Source: Acutalibacteraceae bacterium
Lineage (GTDB): Bacteria; Bacillota; Clostridia; Oscillospirales; Acutalibacteraceae
Direction of reading: 5' to 3'
DNA length: 64,000 bases
NCBI GenBank assembly: GCA_045534895.1
Contig: JAZSKN010000033.1
Span: 890-64,889, forward strand
In this document: in pieces, positions 39,314 through 64,000 of the stretch
Layout: the number at the start of each line of letters is the position of its first letter
How positions within the stretch are numbered: position 1 is the first letter of the stretch
The notes under the pieces: generated by a model
What the model was told of the DNA's origin: nothing
The model's database searches: none
The model's input: only the letters and a program-made list of their open reading frames with translations
Made by a program: the position numbers and the translations under genes

Positions 39314-39928
39314 TTATAATATTACACTTGTAAAGCCTACCGCCTTGCCCAAAATGCGAATTTGGTTTAACTGCTCGCCGGTGTATACAAACGGTTGATA
39401 TTTTGAATTGCAGGCAACAAGTGTAATTGTGTTATCGGATATATAAACACGCTTTAACGTTGCCTCTTCATCAATAAGTACAGCGGCAATTTCACCGTTT
39501 TCTACTGTAGGCTGTTGACGTATATAAACAATATCGCCGTTATGAATACGAGCATCGATCATACTGTCACCTTTACATCGCAGTGCAAAGTCAGCGCATA
39601 TATTTTCGGGTACGGTAACTTCGCCTTCAAGATTTTCATTTGCAAGCACAGGTGTACCGCAAGCAATGGTACCCACAATTGGAATACGGTTCATTTTTGG
39701 AAAAGAAATAACATTGGTATATGATAAATAATCATCATCTATAAAAGAAGATGGGGGAACGTTAAAAATCTCAGACAGTTTTTTTATGGTTTCTCTTTTA
39801 AGGTTTTTTACTGTACCACACTCCCACTTTTGAACTGCGGCGCGTTGAACGCCAAGCATAGAACCAAGCTCTTCTTGTGAAAAGCCGTGTTCGGTACGTA
39901 GTTTTTTAATAAGAGCGCCTATATTCAT
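39314..39928 (-). CDS. Phage CI-like repressor (XRE HTH + S24 LexA-type peptidase)
   Basis: N-terminal HTH_3 (LIKKLRTEHGFSQEELGSMLGVQRAAVQKWE). The C-terminal S24 domain has a CKGDSM Ser and a ATLKRVY Lys. Confidence 0.8.
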   Translation of the reverse strand: MNIGALIKKLRTEHGFSQEELGSMLGVQRAAVQKWECGTVKNLKRETIKKLSEIFNVPPSSFIDDDYLSYTNVISFPKMNRIPIVGTIACGTPVLANENLEGEVTVPENICADFALRCKGDSMIDARIHNGDIVYIRQQPTVENGEIAAVLIDEEATLKRVYISDNTITLVACNSKYQPFVYTGEQLNQIRILGKAVGFTSVIL

Positions 39929-39951
39929 AATATCAGTCCTTTCTGCTTGTA

Positions 39952-40149: not shown

Positions 40150-40174
40150 TGTATTATATACATCCAAGGAGGAA

Positions 40175-41254: not shown

Positions 41255-41354
41255 AAAGTGTGATATCATATCAATGTGGAAAAATAACCCAATTCCACTA
41301 AAAGCGTATGTTGTACTCATACGCTTTTAATTTTGACAACAAGGAGGTGATTTT

Positions 41355-44203: not shown

Positions 44204-45091
44204 ATGACAAATACAATTCAACACGCAAGTAAATATGCAAACGAACTTGATAAGATGATAGTTCAGGAATCTAAGACAGGCTTTTTGGCCGACGGTAAGT
44301 TTAAGGCGCGCTTCACAGGCGCAAAAACGGTAAATATGCCACAGATTGACTTTGACGGTCTGGGTGACTATAGCCGAAAGGACGGTTACTCTAAGGGTGG
44401 CACAAACTTTACATACACCGCTTACGAGCTTAATCAGGAACGCAGTAAGCAGTTAATTATTGATGCGCAGGATGCTGACGAAATGGGTGTTTCCTCGCTT
44501 GTGGGTAAAATGGTTGGCGAATACACTCGAACAAAGGTGAATCCCGAAATAGATGCCTATGTGCTTTCAAAGCTTTACAACGTTGCAAACGAAAAGAACC
44601 ATGTAGATACCTATGACAGCACTGCAGTGGTTGAAACAATGCTTGAATGCATTAATAAGGCTGAGGCGGCAAGCGGCTACACAAACGAAAAAATGGTGGC
44701 TTTTGTAGACCCTGTTATGTATGCCGCGCTTATGACAAGCGACAAGCTTCAGCACAGCATTACCGTAAACGAATTTGAGCAGGGCGCTGTAAACGTTAAG
44801 GTAAAAGAGCTTAACGGTTGCGCTATTATTCCTGTAGCGGCAGACCGTATGCGTACCGAGTACAGCTTTAATGATACGGGCTTTGCGGCAAGTGCTGATG
44901 CGGGCTATATTAAGGCTATTGTAATGCCAAAGGGTGCGGCATCACTTGTAAAAAAGGTAGATAAGGTAGACATCTACACACCCGATATGGTACAGGATAT
45001 GGATGCATATAAGATTAACTTTAGACTATATTATGATCTATTTGTTACCGAAAATAAAAAGGACCTTGTTTTTGCAATTAGTGGCGAATAA
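44204..45091 (+). CDS. Putative major capsid protein
   Basis: 295 aa with a strong RBS, followed by a strong terminator and positioned after the scaffold-like gene. The family was not identified from sequence alone. Confidence 0.5.
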   Translation: MTNTIQHASKYANELDKMIVQESKTGFLADGKFKARFTGAKTVNMPQIDFDGLGDYSRKDGYSKGGTNFTYTAYELNQERSKQLIIDAQDADEMGVSSLVGKMVGEYTRTKVNPEIDAYVLSKLYNVANEKNHVDTYDSTAVVETMLECINKAEAASGYTNEKMVAFVDPVMYAALMTSDKLQHSITVNEFEQGAVNVKVKELNGCAIIPVAADRMRTEYSFNDTGFAASADAGYIKAIVMPKGAASLVKKVDKVDIYTPDMVQDMDAYKINFRLYYDLFVTENKKDLVFAISGE

Positions 45092-45101
45092 GATGTTAAA
45101 A

Positions 45102-45133
45102 AAGCGGTTGCCGTGTGGCGACCGCTTTTTTAA
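45102..45133 (+). terminator. Intrinsic terminator after the capsid gene
   Basis: aagcggttgccgtgtggcgaccgctt followed by TTTTTT. A near-copy of the hairpin lies at 52114-52140. Confidence 0.75.
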
Positions 45134-45254
45134 ATGAAAAATGAAAAATGAAGAATTGTTGTGTTCGCCGTAGGCGAACGAGGGTAAAAGGGTATTGTCG
45201 GTTGTTTCGTGGTGAGGTAGCTCGCAACGACACCTCATCCGTCACTATGTGACA

Positions 45255-45281
45255 CCTTCTCCTCAAGGAGAAGGCTTTTTT
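45255..45281 (+). terminator. Second intrinsic terminator, 24 nt upstream of the toxin gene
   Basis: The stem ccttctcc-tcaa-ggagaagg is followed by cTTTTTT. Confidence 0.6.
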
Positions 45282-45304: not shown

Positions 45305-48058
45305 ATGGGAAAAGAGAAGAAAAAATGGTATCAAACAGGAGAGTTTGAAGATGGATATCAGTTTGGTGATATTTTTAGGACAGTAAAAAACAGTATAAGC
45401 GGTAAAGAGGAAGAAGTAGAAAAGGTTAAGAATATTACAGAAAAAAGTGGAACGAGTGCACAAATTCCTTTTGCGGCGGTTAAGGATGGTAGATTATCGG
45501 TTGATGTACCGGCACAGACTTTTGGATGGAAAAATGATGCTGAACGTGCGAGATTTAAAGCAGAGCACCCAATGGAGTATGCGGCTACAGGTGGTGTGAA
45601 GCTTGATACAAATGTTTTGTCGAAAAATAATATTCAACTGACTACAGAGCAACAAAATATTTTAGAAGAAGCACGGAAAAAAGATGAATATATCAAAAGC
45701 TTACAATATAAACTTGATGTTATAAATGTGAAAAACATAGAGAAAAAACGCAAGAACAGTCATTTGATTGCAGATAGCGAAATAGAATCCGAATTGAGAA
45801 TTAAATGGCTCAATGGCGTTGTGAATATGGATGAGCTTGCAACACAACTAAAAAAAGAGAATGATATTTATAATGCAAAAATTAAATTTGATAACGGTGA
45901 TGCGATAAGTCTAAATGAACGATTGTTGTTAACAGAAAACGGCGGAGAAAATTATACGGAAGGAAACACGAATAAAATTATTGACTTTTTGGCGCAAGAT
46001 AATCCAGAGAATATAAATGCTCGCGATACTGCAGAGAAAGCAAGAAAAAAGCAAAAAAATAATATACCGCTGACTCAAGAGGAAAAAACAGATATTTCTA
46101 ATTATGAAACGCGACGGCACATACAAAAAAGCATTCTTGAAAATAAATATGCTTTGGGTAGCGATATAAAGAAAAACAAAGAAAATATGAATACAATCGC
46201 CGCAATATCCTTATATAATGATGCGATATACGATACTGGAATTAATAAAACATTTAATCAAATGCAGTTATATATCAACACCGGATTCACAAGATATTTC
46301 CAAGATAGCATTAATACTGCAGAGATTTTCTTAACCGAGGACGCATATCACAAGGGTTTGACCGGTAACCGAGGGTCTAATGTAATTAAAAATGAACCCA
46401 AAAGCATGTACGAAATTGCGAATAGTGCTGTTGGTGAATATTTTGTGCAAAATGATATGAAGTTTAATAAGTTTGTACAGGACACAACAGTAAATCTGGC
46501 CAATAATACTATACCAATGTTGTTAAGCGGTGTAAGTGGTGGCGCTTCTATGGTGGCTAGTGGCTTGTCCGTTTTTGGAAGTTCGTATCGTGAAGCAGTG
46601 GAAATGGCACCGGATGTTGAAGAATGGCGATATTGGCTATACGCCGGAATGAATACCTCGGTTGAGTTGTGTATGGAAAAACTTTTGAGTGGTGATAAGA
46701 ATATTGCGGCGAATACGGGAAGTGAATTTACCGATGCTATGTTTAAGATGTTAACCAAAAACATCTCCAACAAAATGCTATTGGGCGGAGTGTATATACT
46801 GTCAAATAGCACGGGAGAGTTTGTTGAGGAAACTATACAAGGGCTTTTATCACCAGTTATGCAAGAATTAATTTTAGGCGTAGATGCTACATCTATATTG
46901 TCATCAAATAAAAATGAGCAATTAAACGCAATGAAAAATGCATTGTATGATGGTATGGTTGGGTTTGTATCGGCAGGTGTAACAACCGGTATGTTTATAA
47001 ACAGTACCATAGAGGGTATAGAACAAAGAAGAATAGTTGGAGAGTATTATAATAAATTATTTAACAATCTAAACATTGACTCAAAAAATGTTGCATTGTA
47101 TTTAAAAGAAATTTCGAATGGCGAAGGCATAAGATTATATAAATCGGCAAAAAAAGTTTTACAAGGCGATACTTCTAATGATGCAGTAGCAAATATGATG
47201 ATAGACGGTTTCGAACAAAGTCTTGAATCACAAAGGTTTATATATACAAAAATAGGTGAACAGTTAAATCGAAATAATAGGTATATAGTGTATAGTCTTA
47301 TAAAACAATATGACAAATTAAGTCAAAGTGAAATAGAACTTTCGAAAAGTATACATAAAACATATAATGAACTGATTAATACAAGTGAAAATACGAGCAG
47401 AGAGACATTTAATTATTTGGTAGGAAAACTTTCGACAACGATGGATGCTGTGTTGCCGAGAACTATTATGGCGTCGGAGATTAAGAAAAAAATTAATGCT
47501 GACATTAAAGAAAACCAAATGAAAAATAATAACAGTTCAATTGATGAAGTAGCAGTTGTTGATGGGATTTGGGAGGATTCACCAAATAAATCGAAAAATG
47601 TTGTCGAAAAAGGGCAGTTGGAAAGTGTTGAAAAGACAAAAGAAAATGGTATAATAGAGAAAACAAAGGTTCTAACGCTTGATGATTTGACAAAAGATGT
47701 TTTGAAAACAAAGCCATTGTATTCTCCTGTGCCAGAGAGGTGGATGCAAAATGGCGGAATTATAGAAATTGCAAATGATGGAAATTGGATATATACAAAC
47801 ACTGATGGAATAAGTGTTAAATATGTAGATGGATATCCAGATTTTAAGGGAGCAGGCTTAGTTATTCAAGAAGTCGATGTTGGAGAATTTGTAAGTCGCG
47901 AAGCAGACAAGAAAAAAGCAAAAGAATTAGTGCAGCAAAACCCAAATACAGAATGGCATCACCCGGCAAACAGTAATAAACTTCAAGAAATAGATGCAAA
48001 TATTCATAAACAATTTACTCATATTGGTGCAATTTCAAAAAATAAAAAAGGAGATTAG
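45305..48058 (+). CDS. Phage polymorphic toxin: 917-aa trunk with C-terminal WHH (HNH/EndoVII-fold) nuclease tip
   Basis: The C-terminus GYPDF...EVDVGEF..READKKKAKEL..NTEWHHPANSNKLQEIDANIHKQFTHIG fits the WHH toxin family. The tip follows the GIWEDSPNKSKNVVEKGQLE junction, and a SUKH immunity gene is 3 nt downstream. Confidence 0.7.
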   Translation: MGKEKKKWYQTGEFEDGYQFGDIFRTVKNSISGKEEEVEKVKNITEKSGTSAQIPFAAVKDGRLSVDVPAQTFGWKNDAERARFKAEHPMEYAATGGVKLDTNVLSKNNIQLTTEQQNILEEARKKDEYIKSLQYKLDVINVKNIEKKRKNSHLIADSEIESELRIKWLNGVVNMDELATQLKKENDIYNAKIKFDNGDAISLNERLLLTENGGENYTEGNTNKIIDFLAQDNPENINARDTAEKARKKQKNNIPLTQEEKTDISNYETRRHIQKSILENKYALGSDIKKNKENMNTIAAISLYNDAIYDTGINKTFNQMQLYINTGFTRYFQDSINTAEIFLTEDAYHKGLTGNRGSNVIKNEPKSMYEIANSAVGEYFVQNDMKFNKFVQDTTVNLANNTIPMLLSGVSGGASMVASGLSVFGSSYREAVEMAPDVEEWRYWLYAGMNTSVELCMEKLLSGDKNIAANTGSEFTDAMFKMLTKNISNKMLLGGVYILSNSTGEFVEETIQGLLSPVMQELILGVDATSILSSNKNEQLNAMKNALYDGMVGFVSAGVTTGMFINSTIEGIEQRRIVGEYYNKLFNNLNIDSKNVALYLKEISNGEGIRLYKSAKKVLQGDTSNDAVANMMIDGFEQSLESQRFIYTKIGEQLNRNNRYIVYSLIKQYDKLSQSEIELSKSIHKTYNELINTSENTSRETFNYLVGKLSTTMDAVLPRTIMASEIKKKINADIKENQMKNNNSSIDEVAVVDGIWEDSPNKSKNVVEKGQLESVEKTKENGIIEKTKVLTLDDLTKDVLKTKPLYSPVPERWMQNGGIIEIANDGNWIYTNTDGISVKYVDGYPDFKGAGLVIQEVDVGEFVSREADKKKAKELVQQNPNTEWHHPANSNKLQEIDANIHKQFTHIGAISKNKKGD
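47564..47633 (+). repeat. Trunk/tip junction repeat, copy 1 (in the expressed toxin gene)
   Basis: gggatttgggaggattcaccaaa...ttgtcgaaaaa...cagttggaaagtgttgaaaa shares identical runs of 23, 11 and 20 bp with copy 3. Confidence 0.8.
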
Positions 48059-48060
48059 TT

Positions 48061-48657
48061 ATGGCTTTTAATAAGTATGGAAAATTAGATGTTTCTATGG
48101 TTAATCAATTGGATGGAATATTAGGTTTTCAAGTGCCACAAGAATATAAAGATTTTTTGATTAATACAAATGGCGGACGTTTTGATTTTGAAGATGAACA
48201 TTATATAGTTGTAAAAAATAAAAAAATATGGATAGACGTTCTTTATGGGAACCAAAAAAATAAACGTTCAAGTTTGTTATTTTGGAATAATGAATATGGT
48301 GATGAAATTCCTGAGAATTCCATCATAATAGGTGATACACAAGATCATAACTTTTTAGTATATCTGTGCGCAGGTGAACAAAAAGGTATTTATTTGTGGG
48401 ATGATACAATGTGTGTTTGTGGTTTATCAGGTGATGGTAGGAATGCTTATTTTATTGCGAATGATATGAATGAATTTTTTAATATGTTTAATATTCAAAC
48501 CAAATTATTTTCTTCAAATGCTACTATATCAAATATAGATAAAAAAATCGGAGAAAGTAACATATTGTATAAGGCGCCAAACGAAAAGAAAATGCAAGTT
48601 ATAGACGCGATAACATTTAAGCGATTTATGCATCGTTGTGAGGATTTTATAATTTAA
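48061..48657 (+). CDS. SUKH/SMI1-KNR4 family immunity protein
   Basis: QVPQEYKDFLINTNGGRF...IIIGD....FLVY......GIYLWD is the SMI1/KNR4 pattern. It lies directly after the WHH tip. Confidence 0.75.
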   Translation: MAFNKYGKLDVSMVNQLDGILGFQVPQEYKDFLINTNGGRFDFEDEHYIVVKNKKIWIDVLYGNQKNKRSSLLFWNNEYGDEIPENSIIIGDTQDHNFLVYLCAGEQKGIYLWDDTMCVCGLSGDGRNAYFIANDMNEFFNMFNIQTKLFSSNATISNIDKKIGESNILYKAPNEKKMQVIDAITFKRFMHRCEDFII

Positions 48658-49064
48658 TATAATTGTTGGATTTTTAATGAAAAAGATTTGGATATAATAG
48701 TTATGTATTATCCAGAGTAGGAGTAATTATTGAAATAATAAGAGACAATGTTGATAAATTAATTGATAAAACAGATTACGAATATAAAAATGAATTTTCT
48801 GATAAAAAGGTGAATACTTTTTTTAATTATTGGCTATTTTTTGATCAAAAAGAATCAGAAATTGTTAAAATGTTAGGTATACCGTTAGATGTTGTGGTGT
48901 ATAGTAAATGGTATTGGAGCGAGCGATATAGGGTGAGTTATGAAGAATTATATAACGAGGAAATTCCAGGTGATCTTTAGGACACAAGGGGACGGTTCTA
49001 TTGTGCCTGCCCTTGTGTCTGTTGGGGTGGTATTAACTGGGCCGACGTAACATATTCTGCTTTA

Positions 49065-49769
49065 TTGGGCGGATTATCTTCTGGTGTATTTGAGTTATCG
49101 CCGAGTGTTTCATCAAATATTAAAAATAATAAGCTTAATCCAAATGAAGTTATTGAAGGTATTTGGGAGGATTCACCAAAAAGAGATAAAAATATTGTCG
49201 AAAAAAGTCAGTTGGAAACATTTGACAACAATAGTAATGATTTGTATAATAACAGTGAAATAAGATTATTAACGAGCGGAAATAGTGGCGGAAAAGCCAA
49301 ACCATATTCTGCAGATAATATTCCGCAATTTATAAATCAATATCTATACAAATTAAAAGATTATGGTGAGATTTTAGAAGTGAAAGAACCACCAAGTTTT
49401 TCTGATATCAGTTTAATGTCAAGGCAATCAGGAACTGAATTTGCATCAATAACCATAGGAGATAATAACTACATTATAAAGGGAGACAATAAAGGTACGC
49501 CAATTTCTAGTGAAATGTTTAAAAAAATTAGAGAAAACAAAGGAATATTAAATTGCCATTCACATCCTTTTATTGATGATTTTAGGGTTTCAAAAGAGGA
49601 TATTAATTTAGCCAAGCAGATGTATTGGCAAAAACAATTTTATATTGTTTCTCCCGATGGTAAATTTGCAACATATAATAGTAACGGAATCATTGATATA
49701 GATATTATAAGAAAAGAACTTGATGATTTGGATTTGGAATTTTATGCGGAATTACTCAGGGAGGATTAA
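49065..49769 (+). CDS. Orphan toxin module 2 (trunk end + junction + JAB/MPN-like tip); no credible start
   Basis: The frame is open from 48981 and the nominal TTG has no RBS. It encodes ..TYSALLGGLSSGVFELSPSVS..NPNEVIEGIWEDSPKRDKNIVEKSQLE, then a tip with CHSHPFIDDFRVSKED (H.H.x8.S..D, JAMM-like). Confidence 0.55.
   Translation: MGGLSSGVFELSPSVSSNIKNNKLNPNEVIEGIWEDSPKRDKNIVEKSQLETFDNNSNDLYNNSEIRLLTSGNSGGKAKPYSADNIPQFINQYLYKLKDYGEILEVKEPPSFSDISLMSRQSGTEFASITIGDNNYIIKGDNKGTPISSEMFKKIRENKGILNCHSHPFIDDFRVSKEDINLAKQMYWQKQFYIVSPDGKFATYNSNGIIDIDIIRKELDDLDLEFYAELLRED
49158..49218 (+). repeat. Trunk/tip junction repeat, copy 2
   Basis: 58 bp (49161-49218) are identical to 50878-50935. Confidence 0.85.
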
Positions 49770-49770
49770 T

Positions 49771-50049
49771 ATGCTAAGTGAAGATGTAGCAATTATTAAA
49801 GGTTTAAAGAAAATTGCTGAGATTTTTGGAATTGAGTATGTAAAAAAACATAAAGATGCGCCTATATGTAGGAGAAGAGAAGGTGATAAACTCATTTTTT
49901 CGTGTCTATATGAAGATGAAGATCAAAGGCCTGATTTAAAACCCGATCACTTAGGGTGGACGGTTTTTGCTGTGGTTGAAGTGAATTTAAAAAAAGAAAC
50001 AGTTAATATTATAGATTATGTTTTACCGGATGGAACCTCAAAACGATAG
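49771..50049 (+). CDS. Putative immunity protein for module 2
   Basis: 92 aa with a GGGAGGA RBS. The ATG lies 1 nt after the toxin-module stop. No family recognised, so the call is positional. Confidence 0.5.
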   Translation: MLSEDVAIIKGLKKIAEIFGIEYVKKHKDAPICRRREGDKLIFSCLYEDEDQRPDLKPDHLGWTVFAVVEVNLKKETVNIIDYVLPDGTSKR

Positions 50050-50114
50050 AATATTAGTAACACAGGGGATTAACACGCTAACCGTCCTCCGTGTTACCTG
50101 AACAAGCATTTTAA

Positions 50115-50176
50115 AAAAAGACAGGGTGGAAGCCTTGTCTTTTAATTTTGGGATTCAAAAAGTGCGACGAGTGTTA
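50115..50176 (+). repeat. 62-bp direct repeat, left copy (contains a terminator hairpin)
   Basis: aaaaagacagggtggaagccttgtcttttaattttgggattcaaaaagtgcgacgagtgtta has one mismatch to 51903-51964. Confidence 0.85.
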
Positions 50177-50304
50177 AGTCGTTTTTAAATTCTGTTGATA
50201 GTGAATTAAATGATTTTGTTGCTCGTGTAAAAAACGGTAGTAAGAAATTTGAACGCTATAAGATTTCAGAGGTAAGCGCACGCGAAGCGGATGATATTAA
50301 AAAT

Positions 50305-51426
50305 TTGCTTGGTATTGATGTTCAGGGTTACACACATAATATAAACAGTGATGGGATAAGGCATATACTTAAACGACATGGCGAAAAGGGACAGCAAGAT
50401 AATACGATGTCGAATGTTGACGATGTAGCTCGTATTGGTTGGGTTATAAATAATTACGATGCGGTTGAATTGATAATAGAAGATGGCAAGCAATCTTATA
50501 GTACGGGATTTGCAAATAAAAACAATAGTCCGGCACCGCAAATAAGATATAGCAAAAAAATAAACGGCACCTACTATGTAGTAGAAGCCATTTTTGAAAA
50601 CAAAAACAATAAACTATGGGTACAATCTGCATATTTGAGTAAAAATAGAGAAGACGTTACGCAAGTCCCCGATGCAGCAGATAAGCCCCCCGAGGTAACG
50701 GCTAAAACCGACCTTCCTTCTCCGTCTTCCAAATTTAGTTTATCACAGGACGTAAAAAAAGTCAATAATGATTACATAAGTAAAGAAGCAAGCTCGCAAG
50801 AAGAGAATGCTTCTTTTTTTGATTATAATTTAGAAAAAACCACACCAAAAATTAATCCCGATGAAGTGATTTCGGGGATTTGGGAGGATTCACCAAAAAG
50901 AGATAAAAATATTGTCGAAAAAAGTCAGTTGGAAAGTGTTGAAAATGTTGGGGATAACTGGTATAATGACAATAATATAATAACTGATGGTAGCCATTTG
51001 GTTAATGACAAGTTAAAGCCGAATGTAAAATATAAGTCCGGTGAGTATGACTATATTTATGCAACCGATCAATCAGGAAGAATAGTCGATTTACATACTG
51101 ATGAATTACAATATACTGAAAGAGATGAGCGCTTAAAACATAATGCTAATTCGCTTGGTAAAGAAATTGGCGATCATGCCGGTCATTTGATAGGAGATCG
51201 ATATGGTGGTTCACCGGATATAGATAATATTGTTTCGCAGTCAGGACTTGTAAATTTAAGCGAATATAAAAAAATAGAAAACATTTGGGCTAGAGCGTTA
51301 GATAGCGGACAAAAAGTTGGCGTCGATATTAAAGTACAATATGAAGGTAATAGTATGAGGCCGTCCTCATTTATTGTTAATTACACTATTGACGGAATTA
51401 AAACGCAAACAACCATAGAGAATTGA
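50305..51426 (+). CDS. Orphan toxin module 3: PBECR-like domain + junction + EssD/YeeF-type (Endonuclease_NS_2) nuclease tip; no credible start
   Basis: The frame is open from 50146 with no RBS. READDIKNLLGIDVQGYTHNINSDGIRHILKRHGEKG is typical of PBECR domains in polyvalent proteins. It is followed by GIWEDSPKRDKNIVEKSQLE and then GDHAGHLIGDRYGGSPDIDNIVSQ...W..AL..G..V.V.I...Y.G.S.RP. Confidence 0.6.
   Translation: MLGIDVQGYTHNINSDGIRHILKRHGEKGQQDNTMSNVDDVARIGWVINNYDAVELIIEDGKQSYSTGFANKNNSPAPQIRYSKKINGTYYVVEAIFENKNNKLWVQSAYLSKNREDVTQVPDAADKPPEVTAKTDLPSPSSKFSLSQDVKKVNNDYISKEASSQEENASFFDYNLEKTTPKINPDEVISGIWEDSPKRDKNIVEKSQLESVENVGDNWYNDNNIITDGSHLVNDKLKPNVKYKSGEYDYIYATDQSGRIVDLHTDELQYTERDERLKHNANSLGKEIGDHAGHLIGDRYGGSPDIDNIVSQSGLVNLSEYKKIENIWARALDSGQKVGVDIKVQYEGNSMRPSSFIVNYTIDGIKTQTTIEN
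50875..50945 (+). repeat. Trunk/tip junction repeat, copy 3
   Basis: See copies 1 and 2. Confidence 0.85.
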
Positions 51427-51440
51427 TGGAGGAAATAGAT

Positions 51441-51887: not shown

Positions 51888-51902
51888 ATATGTGTGATAT
51901 TG

Positions 51903-51964
51903 AAAAAGACAGGGTGGAAGCCTTGTCTTTTAATTTTGGGATTTAAAAAGTGCGACGAGTGTTA
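51903..51964 (+). repeat. 62-bp direct repeat, right copy
   Basis: See 50115-50176. Confidence 0.85.
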
Positions 51965-52107
51965 CATATTCTGCGTTGCTTGGTGGATTGTCTTCGGGTA
52001 TATTTGAGCTTTCGCCAAGTGTTTCGACAAATAATCAAAACAATAAACTAAATCCAAATGAAGTGATTTCGGGGATTTATAACCATATAACAATTAAACA
52101 GTATTAG
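51964..52107 (+). pseudogene. Tip-less trunk-end remnant
   Basis: It encodes TYSALLGGLSSGIFELSPSVSTNNQNNKLNPNEVISGI and then breaks exactly where WEDSP should start (..GIYNHITIKQY*). Confidence 0.65.
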
Positions 52108-52164
52108 TCAAATAAGCGGTTGTCAATTGGGCGACCGCTTATAATTTTTAAAAAGGATGATTAA

Positions 52165-54018
52165 ATGAACAATATTAAATTAAATGTAAAAACAATTTGG
52201 TCAGAGTATGAAAACGGTCAGCAATACAAAAACAGTATTGGCGACAAGGGTATTCACGACCAAGCAAGAATAAACGAGCGATTTTTTGTTGGTGATCAGT
52301 GGCACGGTGTAACCGCCGGAAACGAAAAGCCGCTTACGCGAAGAAATATAATTAAAAGAATTGGTGAATATAAAATGGCGACCGTAGGTAGCGCTCCTAT
52401 CGCAGTAAATTATAGCGCAGAGGGTGTGCCCGATGTTACAGATATTGAGGCAATATCGGATGTAAAAGCGCAAATGATGCAAGGCAATTTACCCGAAGAA
52501 AAAGTAAACGATACCGAAATATCGGTTATTATGGGCGCATTAACCAATTATTTTAAAATAACTGCCGAACGCCTTAAATATGACGATAAAAAGGATATGA
52601 TGCTTAAAAATGCGTATATTTCGGGCACGGGTATTTTGTATACATATTGGGACAGCAAAATTAAAACCGGTCTTTATGCCGATATGGAAAGAAAGGTGGC
52701 AATTACGGGTGATATTGCCTGTGAGGTTTTAGATATTGAAAACGTGGTTTTTGGTGACCCTAATAATGAGGACGTTGAAAGTCAGCCATATATTATAATT
52801 GCGCGTCGATTAGACGTAGATGCGGTAAGGCGCGAGGCAGAGCTTTACGGTCAGCCTATAGAGAATATTTTACCCGACGGCACAGACGGTTATTACCGCA
52901 ATGCTGGTGATCGCGGCGAGGACGAGCCAAATGATTCAAACCGAGTTACTGTTATTACAAAGCTGTACAAAAAATATGATGATAACGGCAACCATACCGT
53001 TTACGGTAAAACCGTAACAAAAAACGCCGTTGTAAGACCCGAATGGAATTTGCTGATACACCGTTACCCAATAGCAAAATTTGTTTGGGAAAGAAGAAAA
53101 AGCTGTGCATATGGTGACAGTGAGGTAAGTTACCAAATACCAAACCAAATCGCGCTAAATCAGGCGCATTCGATATCGGTGTGGGCTATGCAAAATACCG
53201 GCATGCCAAAAACCATTATTAACGGTGATCTTATACCCGACGGTATTTCAAATGATCCCGCCGAGGTTATAAAAATTTACGGTAACGCCGAGGATATGGT
53301 GAGCGCAATAAGATATGTTACGCCGCCGAATTATGGCGCGGCATTTATTAATTTTACCGATGCATTTGCTCAAAACATTCTTTTTGATAACGGCGCAAAC
53401 GATGCGGCGCTTGGTAATTTGCGTCCTGACAATGCAACGGCTATTGTACAGGCGCGCGAAGCGGCGCTTGCACCCATGCAGATGTATCAAAACCGTTTTT
53501 ACAGCGCAAACGAGGACGTTGCGCGCATATGGGCGGATTTTTGGATAACTATGTACGGAAAAAGATCGATAAAAATTAATGACAATGGCAACATAAGCTA
53601 CATAGTTTTCGATGCTGACCGCTATAAAGACTTGGTTATTACCGCTAAAATAGATGTTGGCGCATCAACTCTTTGGAGCGAGGCTGTGTCGATATCTAAT
53701 TTAGGTAATTTGTTGGCAAGTGGCATGATAAGCTTTACCGAGTATCTTGAACGTTTGCCAAAAGGATTAATTCCCGACGTTAATGGTCTTATAAACGCAA
53801 GAAAACAACAAGAACAGCAGGCACAGGCAATAAATATGCCGCAAGAGGCAACGACCAATAGTATAACCAACGGTGAATTGCTTGCTGATTTACAGGCAAA
53901 TAACCCGCAAATATATGAGCAATTAATGAATCTACCGCCGGAGGATCAAGAATATGCTATGCAAATGATACGCGACAGCGCAAACATTAATACGCAAGAA
54001 GCATTTAAAATGAATTAA
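52165..54018 (+). CDS. Putative portal protein
   Basis: 617 aa with an acidic C-terminus and an N-terminal ERFFVGDQWHG-type block. The call rests on size and position and was not verified by profile search. Confidence 0.5.
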   Translation: MNNIKLNVKTIWSEYENGQQYKNSIGDKGIHDQARINERFFVGDQWHGVTAGNEKPLTRRNIIKRIGEYKMATVGSAPIAVNYSAEGVPDVTDIEAISDVKAQMMQGNLPEEKVNDTEISVIMGALTNYFKITAERLKYDDKKDMMLKNAYISGTGILYTYWDSKIKTGLYADMERKVAITGDIACEVLDIENVVFGDPNNEDVESQPYIIIARRLDVDAVRREAELYGQPIENILPDGTDGYYRNAGDRGEDEPNDSNRVTVITKLYKKYDDNGNHTVYGKTVTKNAVVRPEWNLLIHRYPIAKFVWERRKSCAYGDSEVSYQIPNQIALNQAHSISVWAMQNTGMPKTIINGDLIPDGISNDPAEVIKIYGNAEDMVSAIRYVTPPNYGAAFINFTDAFAQNILFDNGANDAALGNLRPDNATAIVQAREAALAPMQMYQNRFYSANEDVARIWADFWITMYGKRSIKINDNGNISYIVFDADRYKDLVITAKIDVGASTLWSEAVSISNLGNLLASGMISFTEYLERLPKGLIPDVNGLINARKQQEQQAQAINMPQEATTNSITNGELLADLQANNPQIYEQLMNLPPEDQEYAMQMIRDSANINTQEAFKMN

Positions 54019-54400: not shown

Positions 54401-54419
54401 TTGAATAGGAAGTGAAAAA

Positions 54420-57564: not shown

Positions 57565-60500
57565 ATGGATGATATTAATATATCAAAATTTCGTCTTGGT
57601 GGCGATACTGCTTTAAGTAAAGAGTCACCGGTAAATTTAGATAAATTTAGGGTATTAGATACCAAAAGTTATGATTATTATACAAAGCAAAATCAAATAA
57701 ATGCCGTGGGTATGGATACGCTTAAGGATGACTTGCTTAAGGTCAATAACAGCATACAAAGCGCGTATAGTAATTGGCAAACTAAAGAACAAATGAAAAA
57801 TACGCAGTCTGATATAAAGTCAATGTACACAAGGCTTACGACCTTACAAAACCTTTGTAAAACAAATGGTATTACAGACGGCGAAAAAGAGCTTTCTGAA
57901 GTGGTAGAGGCTTATAAGTCGACACTCGACGGTTGGAACGATTTAGCATCGTACTATAATAAGTTTAAAACGGCTGATGCATATAATAAGAACAACTTGC
58001 AAATTAAAAAACTTAATGATGAATATAATAAGGCGAAAAATGATGACGTTAATGCCGTAAAAGGTGAACTTAATGCTTGGGAAAAAGAATTAGAAAAAAT
58101 ACTTAACGGTAAAGAATGGTTGTCAAATGACGAATGGCGAACAAACAACGATGGTAGCTTTACTATACCGTACAGCGCTACGCATTTGCCCGAGGTGTTT
58201 GCCGGCAAAACCCTTTCACAAGCAGAAGAAATTGTAAAAAACAAAAGGGCATATCTTGAAAAGGCAATAAGAATTCAAGAAGATGAAAAATATTCTAAGC
58301 TTGTTGAGTCGGGCGAAGGCGAAAAGGGTTATAAAAAATGGCTTGAATATGCTAAAGATACAAATGATTATAAATATAATAACGCTACAAAAAAACGGAC
58401 GACCTTTGCGTTGAGCAAGCCTATTCGCGCTGTGTCTGATAATATTATTTTTAATAAAATGCTTGATACAAGCCACGAGCGACCTAAAGATGATTGGACT
58501 AAGAAGGAGCTTTATCAATTTGGGGCAAGATGGGATGAAAATAACCCCGATATTGCTTACAATTATGCAATTCGAGTTAATAACGAAAATGCAATAGAGC
58601 AAAAAAATATAGCCAAACAAAAGGCGGCGGATTTTGCTACCAAAAATTTTGCTACAGGTGCAATTGCAACCATTGGCAGTATTTTGGCAAAAACGCTTGC
58701 GGTATCAGACTATGTTGACGACCTTACCGATAAAGCGGCACATAGAAACGCAATTGTTGAAGAACCTAATTTAACGCCTTTTGAATGGGCAACCGCATCT
58801 ACGGGTGCTATTAGTGAAAAACTTAATCAAATGGGTACGCTTGACAGCAACATACCCATTATAGGCGGTAAGGGTTGGGGTGACCTTTATGCTTTGGGCG
58901 GAAGCATAGCCCAAAGCGCCGCGCTTACTGCAATTGGAGGACCTTGGCTTACTGCTGTTTCGTTTTTTGGTCAAGGCGCTGCAGATGCGGTTAACGATGC
59001 TACCGAACGAGGCGCTACAATTGACGAGGCTTTGTGTTACGGTACAATTGTTGGTGCGGCAGAAATGGTATCGGAATATATTGGCGCCGACAAGCTGTTA
59101 AAGGTTGGCAAGGGTGAAATACTGTCTGCGTTTAAAGAAATTTTAAAGCAGGCGGGCGCAGAAGGCATAGAAGAAATGTTTTCTGAAACAATAAATAATA
59201 TTGCCGATAACGTTATTATGGGTGACAAAAGTAGGTTTAATCAATTGGTAAATCAGTATAAAGCGCAAGGCTTTAGCGAGCAAGCGGCGGCAAGTATGGC
59301 ATGGACAAAGACAATAGAAGAAATTGCCTACAGCGGATTAAGCGGTATGTTATCTGGCGGCGTGCACGCGGCACCCGTCGTTATATTTAATAAAATAAAT
59401 AAAGCTTACCTCGATATGCCCTTAACAAACGGTTATGTGGACGTATCGGTTATAGATTTTTCTAACACAGTTACTAATACCGTTAAAACAAACAACGGCA
59501 ATCAAGTTAATTGGAATGATTTGGATTTTGATCAGCAAACAGCAATAATTGGTGTAAGTAACTTTGCCAAGAATATGGGGTTAAACGTTACCTGGATTTC
59601 CGACGGCGCTAAGCGCGGTATGAACGGCGCTTATGAAATTACCGGCAACAAAATGCTAATTGATGTTAACGCCGGCAAAACTAAGCTTAACGGCAATTCT
59701 TTTGAAAGCACCATAATACCTACAGCCTCGCATGAGATGGTACACTGGGTTAAAAATAAATCACCCGAAATTTATGCAAAACTTGAGAATTTTGTATTTG
59801 AAACATTTGCGTTACAGGGAATAAGCAATGAAAGCGTAGTCGCCAAGCGAAGAACATTAATGGAAAAAGCGCATAAAGATGTTGCTTATACCAATGAAGA
59901 TGTAATAGAAGAAGTAGTAGCAAGAGCCTGTGAAGATATGCTACAAGACAGCAAAAAATTTAAAAAGTGTTTATACACAATGAATACCCTGCAACAAAAA
60001 ACGGTTTTAGGTAAGCTTACAGAGACCTTTAACAGCATTAAAAGATGGATTAATAATTTTTCGTCCGAATCGCATTCAAATTCTGACGAAGCACAAATAA
60101 TCCGCAAAGATATGGTCAGGTTTAAACAACAAATTAATCTTTACGAAAAAATGCTCATTGATGCTTCACAACTTGGTGAGTATAATGATTTTTACGACAC
60201 ATCAAGCACAAACTCGACACAAATTAACAAAATTAAATATTCAGACATAAGTACCGACGGTTTAACAAAACCTAATATATACGAATATGCAAAAAGAATA
60301 AAGCAGAAATATAATTCAAATATAGACGAAGGTGTAATAATGGATAGACTTAAAGCAATTACAAACAATAAGAATTTGCCACAAGATTCATTACTGCAGG
60401 CAGTTTATAATTATAGTGAGAACGAGATAGGCAGGCTTAACCAAACACAACGGTTAATTAATGAATTAGCGGTCGAAATAGCGCAAGGCATTAAACCTGT

Positions 60501-63500
60501 TTATGATGAATATGCCAACGAGGTGTTATCATTTATAAAAGGAGATAATTTATATCTTGACCGAAACCAACGTTTAAAAATAAAGTATATGTACGGTTCG
60601 CTTACCGATTACCATAACAGAGTTGGTATAAAGTTAAGCAATCCTAAAAATCCTTCGTTAGATGAAGACTGGGTTGCGCTTACTGATGCGTGGCAATATT
60701 GGTCAGACGGTTATCCTGAATTATTTAGCAATAAAATCGCGACCGAAGATATGCCGGCACGTCTTGCCGAGGTAATGGAATATCTTAACAGCCAAAGTAT
60801 TGAAACTGATTATGACGAGCAGGCGCAAAACATAGCGCGCGAATTGTACGAGGAAATATACGGTTTGGATTACTATGAGCAAAACAAAGAAACAATTAAA
60901 TGCTATATTGAGTATTTTGCTCAACTTTACCGTGAAAAGCAAATAACAAGCAATAAGTATTCATCGGGAAATGTATACGACGATTTGCTTACTTTAAAAG
61001 AGAGACTTGTAGCCAAAAAACACAGTATAAATGAATATGAGTGCTTTGCTTGGGTTTTGTTTAATGATATATTAAGCAAAGAAAATGTAGAAACACTTTT
61101 TGGCTGTTATGCAGATTATAAAAATAAAAAAATACAGTTTTCACAAACAAAATTTGGTGAAGCCATTGTGTTTTTTGAAGAATGTCCCGATGTTTTGGTT
61201 TATATAAAAGGACCGGCAATAAATCCTGTTGTTACACAAATTGTACAAATAAATAACCAAGATAACGAAATGCTAAGCAAAATCAAAAATATGATTTTGT
61301 TAAACGAAAAAGAGCAAAATATTTTTTCGATGCAGACTGTCAAAAAAGCATTTGGCGAAAATGCCATTACCGTTCATAAACTTGAGAACTATAAATCTTA
61401 TTGGGATTATCAGCGTTGGTTGACCAACAAAAAGAAAAAGCCTGTTAAGATAAAAAATGAAGACGCGGTCGATAAGTCAAAAATAGATGAAGAGGTCGAT
61501 TACGCCGAGCTGCCGAGCAGTCGACAGGCGTGCTTTGTAAAATGCACGGACGAACAGGCTATTGCAAGGGCCGAAAAAATGGAGTTGCAGGGCAAAAGAC
61601 CACTCGATATTTGGCGCGAGTTAAAAATAGTAAGAGGAATTTTTGGAGATTGGGTAACAACAATTGCGGCAGACGGTATTAGGCTTTATGCTAACGGAAC
61701 GGCAAAAACCGATAGCCATACCAGAAATATACGACTTAAAAGAACAGGCGGTAATATTGAGGGTAAATTATCAGACTTTTTAATGTGGAAGCAGCTGTAC
61801 AAAAAATTTCCGCATTTTAAGGATGTGTCAGTATTATTAACCGATGCTAAATATAGCTATGATACCGTAAAATATCTACCCATAAGAAATACCATAGTAG
61901 TAGATAAAAAATTGTGCGAGGAATTTTTAAAAAAGAAAAACCGCGATTTAATTGCTTATATGTTGCGCGAAGTACAAAGAATGATTCAGATTGAAGAAGG
62001 TAAGTATATTGGCAAAAACCGCGATTATTGGGTTGACCAAGAACGTGCCGGTAAATTACCTTTTTCTAAATTATTAAATCGATACTTAACTGCTGATGAT
62101 ATGATGAAATATTTTATAGACAATTATGAGGCAGAAATGGTTGCTAAAATGCAAATTGTAAGCGACCTTATTTATCGTACGGCGCATCACGCGTATCCTG
62201 ATTTTAGTGAGATTATGTTAATTTCACCCGACGTCGAACCCGATAAGGCATTAACCTTTGATAAAGACGAAAATCTGGTAAGTGTTAAAGAAAAAGACGC
62301 TATTGATGGCAATAACTTTTTTAAAGATTATAAAACAACCGAAAAATACACTAAAGAGCCTTATCAAAAAGACGAGACTTTAAAAGATAATAGCAGCATT
62401 AATGAAGCACCCACGAAAAATGAGGGCGACTTTTTTACATCTGCCAATAATCGACAAAATTTGCTTGATAAAGACAACTTTAGCAAATATAATGATAACA
62501 GTTTAAACAAAGGAGAAAAATATAATGGTGAAAACGCCGAGTTACTGGCAAGAGGAGCAATATCAGCCGCTAATAGAGGAGACGACATATTACGGCAACC
62601 CGGTTCTAATTCCAAAACGCTCGCAGAGTGCTTGGGAATGCCGAAAGGAACAAATGAGCCGCATATCGAAGCAATACGGGCAGGAGAATGCGGTTGGTTG
62701 GTTAAAAAATCGAATTCCGCAAGTAAAGAAACACGGAAGAGTTTTAATAGCGGTATTCTTAGAAGAATACGAGGAATAAAACTAAGCGGTAAAGATACTG
62801 TTGGCGGTATAGTAAGTCCGCAAATTTTAGATGAGTTTAAAGATACAATTTGTAAAGATGAAAACGGCAATTTAATTTCACTATATCATTGGACTACTGA
62901 AATTTTCGAAACGTTCAAAAAGGGTGAATTTGGCTTTCATTTTGGAACGCTAAATGCCGCGCGTGACAGATATTTACAATTAAAAGAAGAAACCCCCGAC
63001 ATATCCGCAGGAGTTTTTAAAGAGGTTATTTTAAATATTACAAATCCAATTGAAATAAATGATGAGATGGGAGAGTGGAATGCAAATTGGGTTGCATTCC
63101 ATCTGCTACAAAAAGGTATTATTGATGAGCAACAATATAATGATTTGTCAAAACTATCGGGATTTAACAAGAATACCTATGATAATCCTGCGGCTAAAGC
63201 TGTACGAGAAATTTTGGCTAAAAACGGTTATGACGGTATAATTTATGAAAACTTAAGTGAGGATGTTGGTAGTTATTCGCTGATAGTGTTATATCCGGAA
63301 CAAATTATTACCGTTTCAGAAAACGGAGTTTTAAAAGAGAATAGTGGTATAAGCCGAGCAACCTTAGAAACACAGGTAACTTCTTTAAATTCAGAAGACA
63401 AATCAGCCAATATAATTAATGCGGACGAGGTTATCGAAGGTATTCGCGGTGAAGATAAACGTAGTTTGGGTGATGAGCAAGATACAACCAAAACAAGAGC

Positions 63501-64000
63501 TATACCAGAGCTTGTTGATTTAATAGAGCGTTTGTCAAACGGAGAAGATATAAATATTGATGAGGTAAATGCTCTATCCATTGTTAAAAAGTTAGAGTGT
63601 GAATCTGATTTAAACACAAGTACGCACAAAAATAACTCTAATGAACGTCAGGAGATAAGAAAAGAAATTATAGAAAACCTGTTGAGAAACGGTAGTGCGG
63701 TTATTGACAGGCATAGAAGAGTTACCTATAATGGTAATGTAAAGCAAGAATATCGTGCAGATATTGTAATAGGTTTGCCGGGCTCAGGTAAATCGAGCAC
63801 GTTAGCAGAACCATTATCAGCATTTTACTCATCAAGAGTAATTGACAGCGATATGGTAAAGAAAATGCTGCCGGAATATAATGGCGGTATAGGCGCCGGT
63901 GTTGTACATAAAGAAAGTGTAGATATAAATAATATTATACTTCAAAATGCTTTAGAAAAAGGCGATAATATTGTTTATCAAATGATTGGCGGTGGCAAGG
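57565..64000 (+). CDS. Giant phage polyvalent protein (at least 2145 aa, 3' end outside the window): trunk, HExxH zincin-like, LPD-like, ART-PolyVal-like and zeta-toxin-like P-loop kinase
   Basis: Not in the ORF track. I read every codon from ATG 57565 (RBS AAGGGTGG) to base 64000 and found no stop. Motifs: SHEMVH (59731-59745), LYHWT..FGFHFGT..GYDGIIYEN..SYSLIVLYPEQI (62881-63310), and Walker A GLPGSGKS (63772-63795). Confidence 0.85.
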   Translation, partial: MDDINISKFRLGGDTALSKESPVNLDKFRVLDTKSYDYYTKQNQINAVGMDTLKDDLLKVNNSIQSAYSNWQTKEQMKNTQSDIKSMYTRLTTLQNLCKTNGITDGEKELSEVVEAYKSTLDGWNDLASYYNKFKTADAYNKNNLQIKKLNDEYNKAKNDDVNAVKGELNAWEKELEKILNGKEWLSNDEWRTNNDGSFTIPYSATHLPEVFAGKTLSQAEEIVKNKRAYLEKAIRIQEDEKYSKLVESGEGEKGYKKWLEYAKDTNDYKYNNATKKRTTFALSKPIRAVSDNIIFNKMLDTSHERPKDDWTKKELYQFGARWDENNPDIAYNYAIRVNNENAIEQKNIAKQKAADFATKNFATGAIATIGSILAKTLAVSDYVDDLTDKAAHRNAIVEEPNLTPFEWATASTGAISEKLNQMGTLDSNIPIIGGKGWGDLYALGGSIAQSAALTAIGGPWLTAVSFFGQGAADAVNDATERGATIDEALCYGTIVGAAEMVSEYIGADKLLKVGKGEILSAFKEILKQAGAEGIEEMFSETINNIADNVIMGDKSRFNQLVNQYKAQGFSEQAAASMAWTKTIEEIAYSGLSGMLSGGVHAAPVVIFNKINKAYLDMPLTNGYVDVSVIDFSNTVTNTVKTNNGNQVNWNDLDFDQQTAIIGVSNFAKNMGLNVTWISDGAKRGMNGAYEITGNKMLIDVNAGKTKLNGNSFESTIIPTASHEMVHWVKNKSPEIYAKLENFVFETFALQGISNESVVAKRRTLMEKAHKDVAYTNEDVIEEVVARACEDMLQDSKKFKKCLYTMNTLQQKTVLGKLTETFNSIKRWINNFSSESHSNSDEAQIIRKDMVRFKQQINLYEKMLIDASQLGEYNDFYDTSSTNSTQINKIKYSDISTDGLTKPNIYEYAKRIKQKYNSNIDEGVIMDRLKAITNNKNLPQDSLLQAVYNYSENEIGRLNQTQRLINELAVEIAQGIKPVYDEYANEVLSFIKGDNLYLDRNQRLKIKYMYGSLTDYHNRVGIKLSNPKNPSLDEDWVALTDAWQYWSDGYPELFSNKIATEDMPARLAEVMEYLNSQSIETDYDEQAQNIARELYEEIYGLDYYEQNKETIKCYIEYFAQLYREKQITSNKYSSGNVYDDLLTLKERLVAKKHSINEYECFAWVLFNDILSKENVETLFGCYADYKNKKIQFSQTKFGEAIVFFEECPDVLVYIKGPAINPVVTQIVQINNQDNEMLSKIKNMILLNEKEQNIFSMQTVKKAFGENAITVHKLENYKSYWDYQRWLTNKKKKPVKIKNEDAVDKSKIDEEVDYAELPSSRQACFVKCTDEQAIARAEKMELQGKRPLDIWRELKIVRGIFGDWVTTIAADGIRLYANGTAKTDSHTRNIRLKRTGGNIEGKLSDFLMWKQLYKKFPHFKDVSVLLTDAKYSYDTVKYLPIRNTIVVDKKLCEEFLKKKNRDLIAYMLREVQRMIQIEEGKYIGKNRDYWVDQERAGKLPFSKLLNRYLTADDMMKYFIDNYEAEMVAKMQIVSDLIYRTAHHAYPDFSEIMLISPDVEPDKALTFDKDENLVSVKEKDAIDGNNFFKDYKTTEKYTKEPYQKDETLKDNSSINEAPTKNEGDFFTSANNRQNLLDKDNFSKYNDNSLNKGEKYNGENAELLARGAISAANRGDDILRQPGSNSKTLAECLGMPKGTNEPHIEAIRAGECGWLVKKSNSASKETRKSFNSGILRRIRGIKLSGKDTVGGIVSPQILDEFKDTICKDENGNLISLYHWTTEIFETFKKGEFGFHFGTLNAARDRYLQLKEETPDISAGVFKEVILNITNPIEINDEMGEWNANWVAFHLLQKGIIDEQQYNDLSKLSGFNKNTYDNPAAKAVREILAKNGYDGIIYENLSEDVGSYSLIVLYPEQIITVSENGVLKENSGISRATLETQVTSLNSEDKSANIINADEVIEGIRGEDKRSLGDEQDTTKTRAIPELVDLIERLSNGEDINIDEVNALSIVKKLECESDLNTSTHKNNSNERQEIRKEIIENLLRNGSAVIDRHRRVTYNGNVKQEYRADIVIGLPGSGKSSTLAEPLSAFYSSRVIDSDMVKKMLPEYNGGIGAGVVHKESVDINNIILQNALEKGDNIVYQMIGGGK

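Follow-up and report, generated by a model that had tools for sequence, protein, structure and literature searches.

What carries a prophage-encoded polymorphic toxin to its target cell when the toxin contains no MuF domain? Polymorphic toxin families are defined by their N-terminal part, which sets the delivery route, and to our knowledge MuF is the only carrier described for the delivery of polymorphic toxins by phage particles. The question is raised by a protein of 917 amino acids (aa) encoded in a 64,000-nucleotide (nt) stretch of DNA from an Acutalibacteraceae bacterium (contig JAZSKN010000033.1; 'the window' below means this whole stretch), where its gene stands among the head genes of a prophage and is followed by an immunity gene of the SUKH type. 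The protein is very probably a polymorphic toxin whose trunk is of polyvalent rather than MuF type, and the best overall explanation of the locus, to which we assign a probability of roughly 0.6, is that of a prophage polymorphic toxin mounted on a polyvalent-type carrier and delivered by the virion. The coordinates of the features are collected in Table 1.

Toxin, immunity gene and orphan cassettes

The C-terminal ~130 aa of the protein are, as read from the sequence, a WHH-type HNH/EndoVII nuclease domain with a predicted activity. The first-pass annotation had placed a WHH signature, followed by IHKQFTHIG, at positions 47954-47962, and this reading is exact to the codon: W884, H885 and H886 are encoded there by TGG CAT CAC, IHKQFTHIG comes next, and the Pfam family WHH (PF14414) matches residues 881-916 (E 1.2e-4, 22.1 bits). 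The same family is matched in four members of the toxin family, with a best E of 1.5e-9, and W884, H885, H886, H901 and H906 are invariant across the four WHH-type members. Two relatives which carry a precomputed PF14414 flag (P0003 and P0008) are 50-55% identical to the 917-aa protein over the toxin domain. Moreover, an AlphaFold2 (AF2) model of the last 140 aa, with a predicted local distance difference test score (pLDDT) of 85, ends in a strand-strand-helix arrangement with the WHH residues on the first strand. A sequence-profile search of the PDB with the toxin gives weak matches, and these to Rhs C-terminal toxins only (8bd1, E 0.02; 8h8a, E 0.12).

The next gene had been taken for a SUKH immunity gene, and such it proves to be. 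Its product matches SMI1_KNR4 (PF09346) with 47.6 bits against a cut-off of 25.4, and SUKH_6 with 36.8 bits against a cut-off of 27.

The anatomy of the whole protein follows from an alignment of 19 relatives (the identical P0001 and 18 others), in which six parts can be distinguished. The protein opens with a 30-aa motif which begins MGKEKKKWYQTGEFEDGYQFGD, is nearly invariant across the toxin family and is proposed to act as a capsid-targeting or ejection signal. A second conserved block follows, which also opens P0168, a toxin whose trunk resembles the giant open reading frame (ORF) of the related locus L002. Between this block and a Gly/Ala/Ser-rich core the trunk is all-helical in the AF2 model. 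The core itself contains the invariant residues G413, E454 and G463 together with an acidic helix of the form E-x-x-E-E, and it is flanked by what are, from the hydropathy profile, the only moderately hydrophobic helices of the protein; the same profile gives no N-terminal hydrophobic signal or signal peptide. The trunk has no match in PHROGs or NCBIfam, a profile of the core finds only chance-level matches among PDB sequences, and in a tblastn search of GenBank phages with the whole protein the toxin domain alone was matched.

Trunk and toxin meet at the pre-toxin motif, the consensus of which is IDExAFVEGLWEDSPNxSKNIVEKSQLESVEN and which in the 917-aa protein includes IDEVAVVDGIWEDSP...SVEK. 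A hidden Markov model (HMM) of the motif matches three sites in the window (47540-47629, 49134-49220 and 50851-50940), scoring 50-54 bits at all three, and at the DNA level the motif is a 129-nt repeat with three copies. It forms the boundary between trunk and toxin and is likely to be a site of recombination and/or cleavage, and we take it to be comparable to the demarcation motifs VENN or PxxxxDPxGL of Rhs/CdiA proteins.

Across the relatives, at least five trunk types are combined with at least seven C-terminal toxins. One trunk type, with 53-74% identity among its members, ends in a WHH domain (P0003), in Ntox50 (P0004), in the toxin type of the second cassette described below (P0005) or in an unknown toxin (P0002 and P0006), and at least four further trunk types, which share the N-terminal and pre-toxin motifs, end in WHH, GH-E, Endonuclea_NS_2 or unknown toxins. 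In P0007 a toxin domain which is 78% identical to that of the 917-aa protein stands on an unrelated trunk and is followed by a SUKH gene whose product is 75% identical to that of the window. Pairs of toxin and immunity gene move as units among at least five trunks. Two of the relatives (P0007 and P0011) combine PBECR3 or LPD3, domains typical of polyvalent proteins, upstream with a toxin. So far the toxin family comprises about 25 protein clusters, all from one bacterial family.

Two displaced, 5'-truncated toxin/immunity cassettes and a toxin-less stub follow the SUKH gene and precede the portal gene. These orphan cassettes are earlier 3' ends which have been left downstream, and the orphan array (49050-52107), together with the N-terminal motif and with the pre-toxin motif that recurs as a linker, forms the strongest evidence for a polymorphic system. 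By blastp, cassette 2 matches residues 575-633 of P0009/P0010 with its residues 1-59 at 76-78% identity, and the C-terminus of the full-length toxin P0005 with its residues 24-234 at 67% identity. There is no Pfam match to this cassette, the toxin of which shows, by eye, an HSHP...S.ED motif resembling JAB/MPN domains. The frame of cassette 3 is open from 50146, with TTG at 50305 as its earliest start codon, and Pfam finds in it PBECR3 (6e-16) and Endonuclea_NS_2 (3e-29); the PBECR3 part is 74% identical to residues 739-897 of P0014, and the toxin shares 64-67% identity with the C-termini of P0019 and P0021. The 154-aa gene which follows this cassette has no family match in Pfam, PHROGs or NCBIfam. 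The stub repeats the trunk end of cassette 2, as is evident also from a DNA repeat of which one copy (49047-49164) is ~80% identical to the other (51961-52078). Finally, the open frame at 48681-48980, between the SUKH gene and cassette 2, may be what is left of a second immunity gene.

Loci related to that of the window contain material of the same kind. The toxin island of L016, a locus of 15.8 kb, contains two full-length toxins, an Ntox50 orphan, an Imm33 gene and two SUKH genes. The two SUKH genes form an adjacent pair at 12199-13335, one of them being 75% identical to the SUKH gene of the window, and no WHH toxin domain matching it was found in the 15.8 kb of this locus; it appears, from these sequences, to be an orphan (or 'hoarded') immunity gene. 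In L002, an Imm33 gene occupies the place equivalent to the frame at 48681-48980.

The trunk, giant polyvalent proteins and known systems

The MuF families PF04233 and PF06152 match none of the 58 members scanned, that is the 917-aa protein and 57 relatives, at cut-offs of E<=0.1 for the 917-aa protein, E<=0.01 for 19 relatives and E<=0.001 for 39 wider members. The absence of MuF from the trunk, which had been claimed from motifs, is thus borne out by profile searches. The further claim that the trunk resembles the giant ORF which starts at 57565 has gained in strength: the likeness between the toxin core and this ORF is weak by BLASTP (E 0.034) but real by hhalign, which aligns the toxin family with the giant ORF at a probability of 96.6% and E 5.5e-10, pairing residues 421-563 of the toxin with 465-604 of the giant protein over ~130 columns. 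The copy of the core in the giant ORF lies at 58882-59424.

The likeness extends well beyond the window. At E<=1e-3 a profile of the core matches 6,757 cluster representatives, of which 2,169 remain at E<=1e-10; most of the matched proteins are 2,000-3,500 aa long and carry the core at residues ~170-400. Since those that were sampled contain ART-PolyVal, LPD38, PBECR5, LPD3 and LPD23, the core-bearing giants can be recognised as phage-type polyvalent proteins (PMC5512222), and since LPD38 sits near their C-terminus, no Pfam family covers the core. Upstream of the core, the N-terminal motif is present, in the form G-x-F-x-D-G-Y-x-x-G-D, in 76 of 147 representatives. It also starts giant proteins of 2,789 aa and of more than 3,380 aa in IMG/VR contigs, in one of which the giant gene adjoins tail-like and internal-virion-like genes. 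In P0168 the trunk of the toxin is 57% identical to the N-terminus of the 4,068-aa giant ORF of L002; therefore toxin trunks and giant ORFs share sequence directly. Taken together, the N-terminal motif and the core of the trunk are what thousands of giant phage-type polyvalent proteins, the co-resident one of 3,334 aa included, have in common as their conserved front end.

Metagenomes yield about 6,750 protein clusters with this module of N-terminal motif and core (for example in L010 and L011 of IMG/VR, and in P0020-P0166). One representative query of the N-terminal module, searched by tblastn against 50,697 deposited phage genomes and 72,556 plasmids, matched none of them. With this one query unmatched among phage and plasmid genomes, and with the module absent from Pfam, the carrier represents a sizeable piece of unannotated sequence.

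A second link between the toxins and the giant protein is the linker. The giant protein P0020, of which the first part is encoded in the window, has two copies, INADEVIEGIRGEDKR at residue 1952 (window 63418-63447) and INPADVSEGIWGKDER at residue 2229, and these bracket its Zeta/AAA_33 kinase-like domain. A scan of 320,331 residues found the pattern N[PA]x[DE]V[IS]xGI[WYR] in the toxin family and in P0020 only. P0020 also has a zincin motif, HEMVH, at residue 723. By eye, it contains four ART-PolyVal-like repeats, where Pfam reports one, and towards its C-terminus a His/Cys pair in VIHGD...LISCESG which looks cysteine-peptidase-like. Giant polyvalent proteins of the typical kind, as seen in the giant ORF of L010 (translation from 9941), have a different recurring inter-domain linker, NPTSDxDIR[YF]S, which is repeated between ART domains; in the lineage of the window its counterpart may be the NPxEVIxGIW linker.

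Among known systems, those nearest in function are the MuF toxins (Jamet et al. 2017, PMC5576092). They too belong to the head/packaging module of Firmicutes prophages, and they too have a conserved N-terminus, a variable C-terminal toxin, a small downstream immunity gene and a presumed delivery by the virion. The 917-aa protein, however, has no MuF domain, and its gene lies between those of capsid and portal rather than just downstream of the portal gene, such that two features which define the MuF toxins, domain and gene position, are absent. Its N-terminal motif, core and pre-toxin motif are likewise distinct, and the array of orphan cassettes is explicit in the window whereas the MuF paper (PMC5576092) nowhere uses the word 'orphan'.

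The closest relatives of the carrier are the polyvalent proteins (Iyer et al. 2017, PMC5512222), with which it shares a homologous core and N-terminal motif, an inter-domain linker, the presence of PBECR3 or LPD3 in some of its relatives and a location among virion genes. Polyvalent proteins, however, contain at least two disparate effectors and usually a zincin (PMC5512222), whereas the 917-aa protein has a single effector domain and its translation contains no HExxH. Nor are a classical polymorphic-toxin domain, a dedicated immunity gene and orphan cassettes, such as accompany the 917-aa protein, reported for polyvalent proteins by Iyer et al. (PMC5512222); indeed, polyvalent proteins are described there as having very few domains in common with polymorphic toxins. 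The Rhs/CdiA-type toxins (Zhang et al. 2012, PMC3482391) offer the parallel for the displaced, 5'-truncated downstream toxin/immunity cassettes and for the WHH, GH-E, Ntox50 and SUKH parts, but the trunk of the 917-aa protein is unrelated to theirs, its presumed route is the phage capsid, and the sequence of its demarcating motif is new.

The first-pass annotation had also taken it that polymorphic toxins of phages rest on MuF only. This premise is outdated and needs correcting, because prophages are known to carry non-MuF toxins that depend on the type VII secretion system (T7SS), the examples being from mycobacterial prophages and a Streptococcus phage (PMC9503650 and PMC8092301). Like the pair in the window, these are prophage-borne toxin/immunity pairs, but according to PMC9503650 and PMC8092301 they are accessory genes whose products are exported by the type VII system of the host and not by the virion. 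Unlike them, the 917-aa toxin sits in the structural operon and has a carrier in common with a virion-type giant protein. From the position of the gene and the homology of the trunk it is reasonable to suppose that the trunk is what had been suggested, namely a different virion-packaging carrier.

One further comparison is with the virion RNA polymerase gp50 of phage N4, a capsid-packaged giant protein with a long alpha-helical N-terminal region which is reported to be necessary for its injection. There is a colinear, weak similarity between gp50 and the core in the segments E-x-V-E-E-G and G-F-x-S-A-G. Homology of the core to the gp50 injection domain was nonetheless rejected as not robust, the hhalign value being 1% with a single sequence, 55.8% with a 13-sequence core profile and 5.4% with a 164-sequence profile.

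The prophage and its genes

The element is an SOS-type prophage of the Acutalibacteraceae bacterium, with the toxin in its head-gene block (capsid, toxin island, portal). Its left side is visible in the window, where the genes for TerS, TerL, head and portal proteins adjoin host genes behind a LexA-like repressor. The first 39 kb (1-39251) are host chromosome of a spore-forming Clostridia bacterium with cellulosome parts, and encode among others a cohesin/dockerin/Big_3 protein, SpoIVB, an HtrA-like protease, GH94, GH4, a fucosidase, PBP, KDPG aldolase and PfkB. The last three of these lead up to the minus-strand repressor gene, after which come a 136-aa ORF, a 187-aa protein with weak matches to ArpU and sigma-70 region 4 (E ~3e-3), TerS, TerL, an 83-aa membrane protein, a putative scaffold protein (named from its position only, with no family match) and the major head protein. 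Behind the head gene follow the toxin island, the portal gene, ORFs of 124, 722 and 324 aa, and the giant ORF. Scans of the window for tRNAs and Rfam families gave no match.

The early region (39314-41711) is minimal, consisting of the repressor, the 136-aa ORF and the 187-aa protein, and passes directly to TerS/TerL. No replication or integrase genes are found on this visible (left) side of the element (39314-41711), a layout which recalls PBSX. Between the portal gene and the giant ORF, the ORFs of 124, 722 and 324 aa (54026-57562) diverge fast, with 33-68% identity across related elements, and have no Pfam, PHROG or NCBIfam match; they may belong to the tail or connector of a podovirus-like particle.

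The related loci all come from metagenome-assembled genomes of Acutalibacteraceae or 'uncultured Ruminococcus'. The toxin gene stands after the major head gene and before the portal gene in the window and, as annotated, in L001, L002 and L016; the order and sizes of the ORFs place it likewise in L003 and L006. The site and the gene order of the element are the same in L001 and L002, where the arrangement of repressor and pfkB is identical, and are indicated to be the same in L003 and L006, again by ORF sizes and order. Host flank proteins are 92-100% identical among five loci, whereas TerL, head and portal proteins are only 74-86% identical; therefore the loci appear to contain diverged elements at one site and not a single ancient resident. 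By the same figures, the idea of a domesticated, vertically inherited element, which had been considered, is weakened.

Near-identical hairpin stems (AAGCGGTTG..GGCGACCGCTT) at 45100-45130 and 52112-52142 bracket the entire toxin island. As a general feature this flanking repeat was set aside, for no copy of it was recovered in the related loci L001, L003 and L006.

Table 1. Positions of the toxin locus, its parts and the neighbouring features in the window
Feature	Position	Strand	Basis and remarks
LexA/CI-like repressor (HTH + S24 peptidase)	39314..39928	-	NCBIfam lexA 3.9e-29; left end of element, beside host pfkB
Major head protein	44204..45091	+	phrog_422, E 1.3e-69; left border of toxin island
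Two terminator-like hairpins in gap between capsid and toxin genes	45100..45274 (~45100-45130, ~45255-45274)	+	Sequence reading and terminator scan
Full-length polymorphic toxin gene, 917 aa, intact	45305..48058	+	ORF list; ATG start
N-terminal motif, residues 1-30, MGKEKKKWYQTGEFEDGYQFGDIFRTVKN	45305..45394	+	K6-D22 invariant in 14 proteins with otherwise different trunks
Second conserved block, residues ~54-100 (FAAVKDGRL..GW.N..ER..F..HP.EY..GGVK)	45464..45604	+	Consensus of alignments A2 and A4
Gly/Ala/Ser-rich helical core, residues 398-570 (~170 aa)	46496..47014	+	hhalign, core profile, hydropathy
Pre-toxin motif, residues 744-775 (~32 aa), IDEVAVVDGIWEDSPNKSKNVVEKGQLESVEK	47534..47629	+	Alignment column view; motif HMM; DNA repeat family D1
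WHH-type HNH/EndoVII toxin domain (predicted), residues 787-917	47663..48055	+	Pfam, alignment, AF2 model
Cognate SUKH-1 (SMI1/KNR4) immunity gene	48061..48657	+	ATG 2 nt past toxin stop codon; translationally coupled
Open frame, ~100 codons, no ATG/GTG/TTG until GTG at 48810	48681..48980	+	Direct reading, ORF list
Orphan cassette 2: last core helix (P0009/P0010-type), pre-toxin motif, toxin of unknown family	49050..49769	+	blastp
Cassette 2 immunity gene, 92 aa	49771..50049	+	75% identical to 96-aa gene behind P0005 in L016
Orphan cassette 3, 5'-truncated: PBECR3, linker, pre-toxin motif, Endonuclea_NS_2 toxin	50146..51426	+	Pfam, frame reading
Presumed cassette 3 immunity gene, 154 aa	51423..51887	+	Position only; overlaps toxin stop codon
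Toxin-less stub, LLGGLSSGIFELSPSVS..NPNEVISGIYNHITIKQY*	51976..52107	+	3' end of P0009-type trunk, cut just inside pre-toxin motif
Terminator-like hairpin before portal gene	52112..52142	+	Terminator scan; resembles post-capsid hairpin
Portal protein	52165..54018	+	phrog_156, E 2.8e-23; right border of toxin island
Giant polyvalent protein, first 2,145 of 3,334 aa in window	57565..64000	+	Pfam ART-PolyVal, Zeta_toxin; window part 100% identical to P0020

Delivery route and rival explanations

Polyvalent proteins are predicted to be packaged in the capsid, injected and cut into units by their own zincin peptidase (PMC5512222). On this model the 917-aa protein would be made along with the late structural proteins, would be loaded into the capsid by its N-terminal module, and would be ejected with the DNA into the target cell in the manner predicted for polyvalent proteins. 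The nuclease would then be freed by a cut at the pre-toxin motif, possibly by the zincin peptidase of a giant protein packaged alongside it, and would degrade the DNA of cells without a matching SUKH protein. The survivors would be lysogens and cells which hoard orphan immunity genes. The parts of this scheme are not equally secure: that the 917-aa protein is virion cargo which is injected we hold to have an even chance, and cleavage of the toxin at the pre-toxin motif is a tentative proposal with the odds somewhat against it.

Several observations weigh against virion delivery on a polyvalent-type carrier, or against parts of it. The packaging of the 917-aa protein is a prediction from gene position and homology, and no cultured system backs the idea, since the search of 50,697 phage genomes gave no match. 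Two terminator-like hairpins stand between the capsid gene and the toxin gene, and co-expression of the two is consequently an assumption. The 22.1 bits of the WHH match lie below the 25.1-bit gathering score for the 917-aa protein, and a Foldseek search with the model of the toxin domain gave no PDB match at E<1 and no HNH structure. The model of the trunk within the full-length AF2 prediction is poor (pLDDT 56), and Foldseek finds no structural match to the trunk below E 0.5 in the PDB. The copy of the linker motif in that part of the giant ORF which lies in the window is weak by the motif HMM (score -1.3), the better copy being outside the window. Lastly, a non-specific DNase could, once injected, also cut the DNA of the incoming phage.

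The alternatives differ from this scheme chiefly in what they make of the capsid. In one, the toxin is not virion cargo at all but is released at prophage-induced lysis, or exported by an unrecognised route, and acts in the manner of a bacteriocin with its helical trunk serving for receptor binding or translocation. The release route even of MuF toxins is considered unsettled; here, where packaging is again deduced from genes, the moderately hydrophobic helices of the trunk could insert into membranes and the hairpins upstream of the toxin gene would permit its independent regulation. Against such a soluble toxin stand the position of the gene, always between the capsid and portal genes in the loci examined, and the absence from the 917-aa protein of a signal peptide and of any known translocation or receptor domain (by Pfam and hydropathy). 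Its N-terminal motif and core are, moreover, common to thousands of giants with enzymatic domains that act inside the cell and with genes placed among those of the virion. We regard a soluble toxin as unlikely. Somewhat more unlikely is that the protein is indeed packaged and injected, yet serves the phage itself in host takeover, anti-defence or superinfection exclusion, the SUKH protein shielding producer cell and phage genome until lysis. Polyvalent early effectors have the same carrier module (PMC5512222), and some relatives have PBECR3 or LPD3 upstream of the toxin, both of which would suit such a role. The swapping of toxins, the orphan toxin cassettes and, above all, the orphan immunity genes with no matching toxin in the examined sequence are by contrast hallmarks of kin discrimination, which is favoured here because both orphan toxins and orphan immunity genes are present.

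Two other explanations are far less probable. Were the trunk a very divergent head protein of the MuF type, the locus would encode an ordinary MuF toxin; the families MuF3 and MuF4 of Jamet et al. are in fact not among the Pfam profiles used, a MuF_C domain occurs in one of the 17 giant relatives sampled, and a faint MuF_C match is seen in the giant ORF of L002. MuF_C, however, is a PBECR nuclease domain and not the MuF head domain, PF04233 and PF06152 match 0 of the 58 members, and the gene lies downstream of the capsid gene and upstream of the portal gene, whereas muf genes lie immediately downstream of that for the portal, all of which makes a hidden MuF protein highly improbable. The tight coupling of toxin and SUKH genes would also accord with an addiction module, akin to a toxin-antitoxin pair, which stabilises the prophage, but a conserved carrier of 790 aa, a pre-toxin motif, orphan arrays and a position in the late structural operon are all atypical of toxin-antitoxin modules, and we give this explanation hardly any credence.

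Virion delivery on a polyvalent-type carrier can be taken further, though with less assurance. The N-terminal motif and core might be a portable load-and-eject capsid module of the ~6,750 polyvalent clusters, which has here been turned into the carrier of an interbacterial toxin; the particle might then be a contact-independent injector, with its payload cut at the shared linker and kin protected by prophage-borne and hoarded immunity genes. This full picture we consider speculative and, as a whole, rather unlikely. In a sharper version of it, the element would be a non-replicating, PBSX-like killer particle, a reading prompted by the LexA-like repressor and the weak ArpU/sigma-like activator directly before the terminase genes, and by the lack of replication and integrase genes on the visible side.

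What the locus suggests, therefore, is a second candidate family of carriers for polymorphic toxins borne by phage particles. It joins two fields which have been nearly separate, that of polyvalent, early-injected effectors and that of polymorphic toxins of kin discrimination. If the module is portable, it would be usable for loading cargo into phage heads. In the N-terminal motif and the ~170-aa core, moreover, it provides testable handles on the capsid loading and ejection of giant proteins in a very large group of uncultivated phages.

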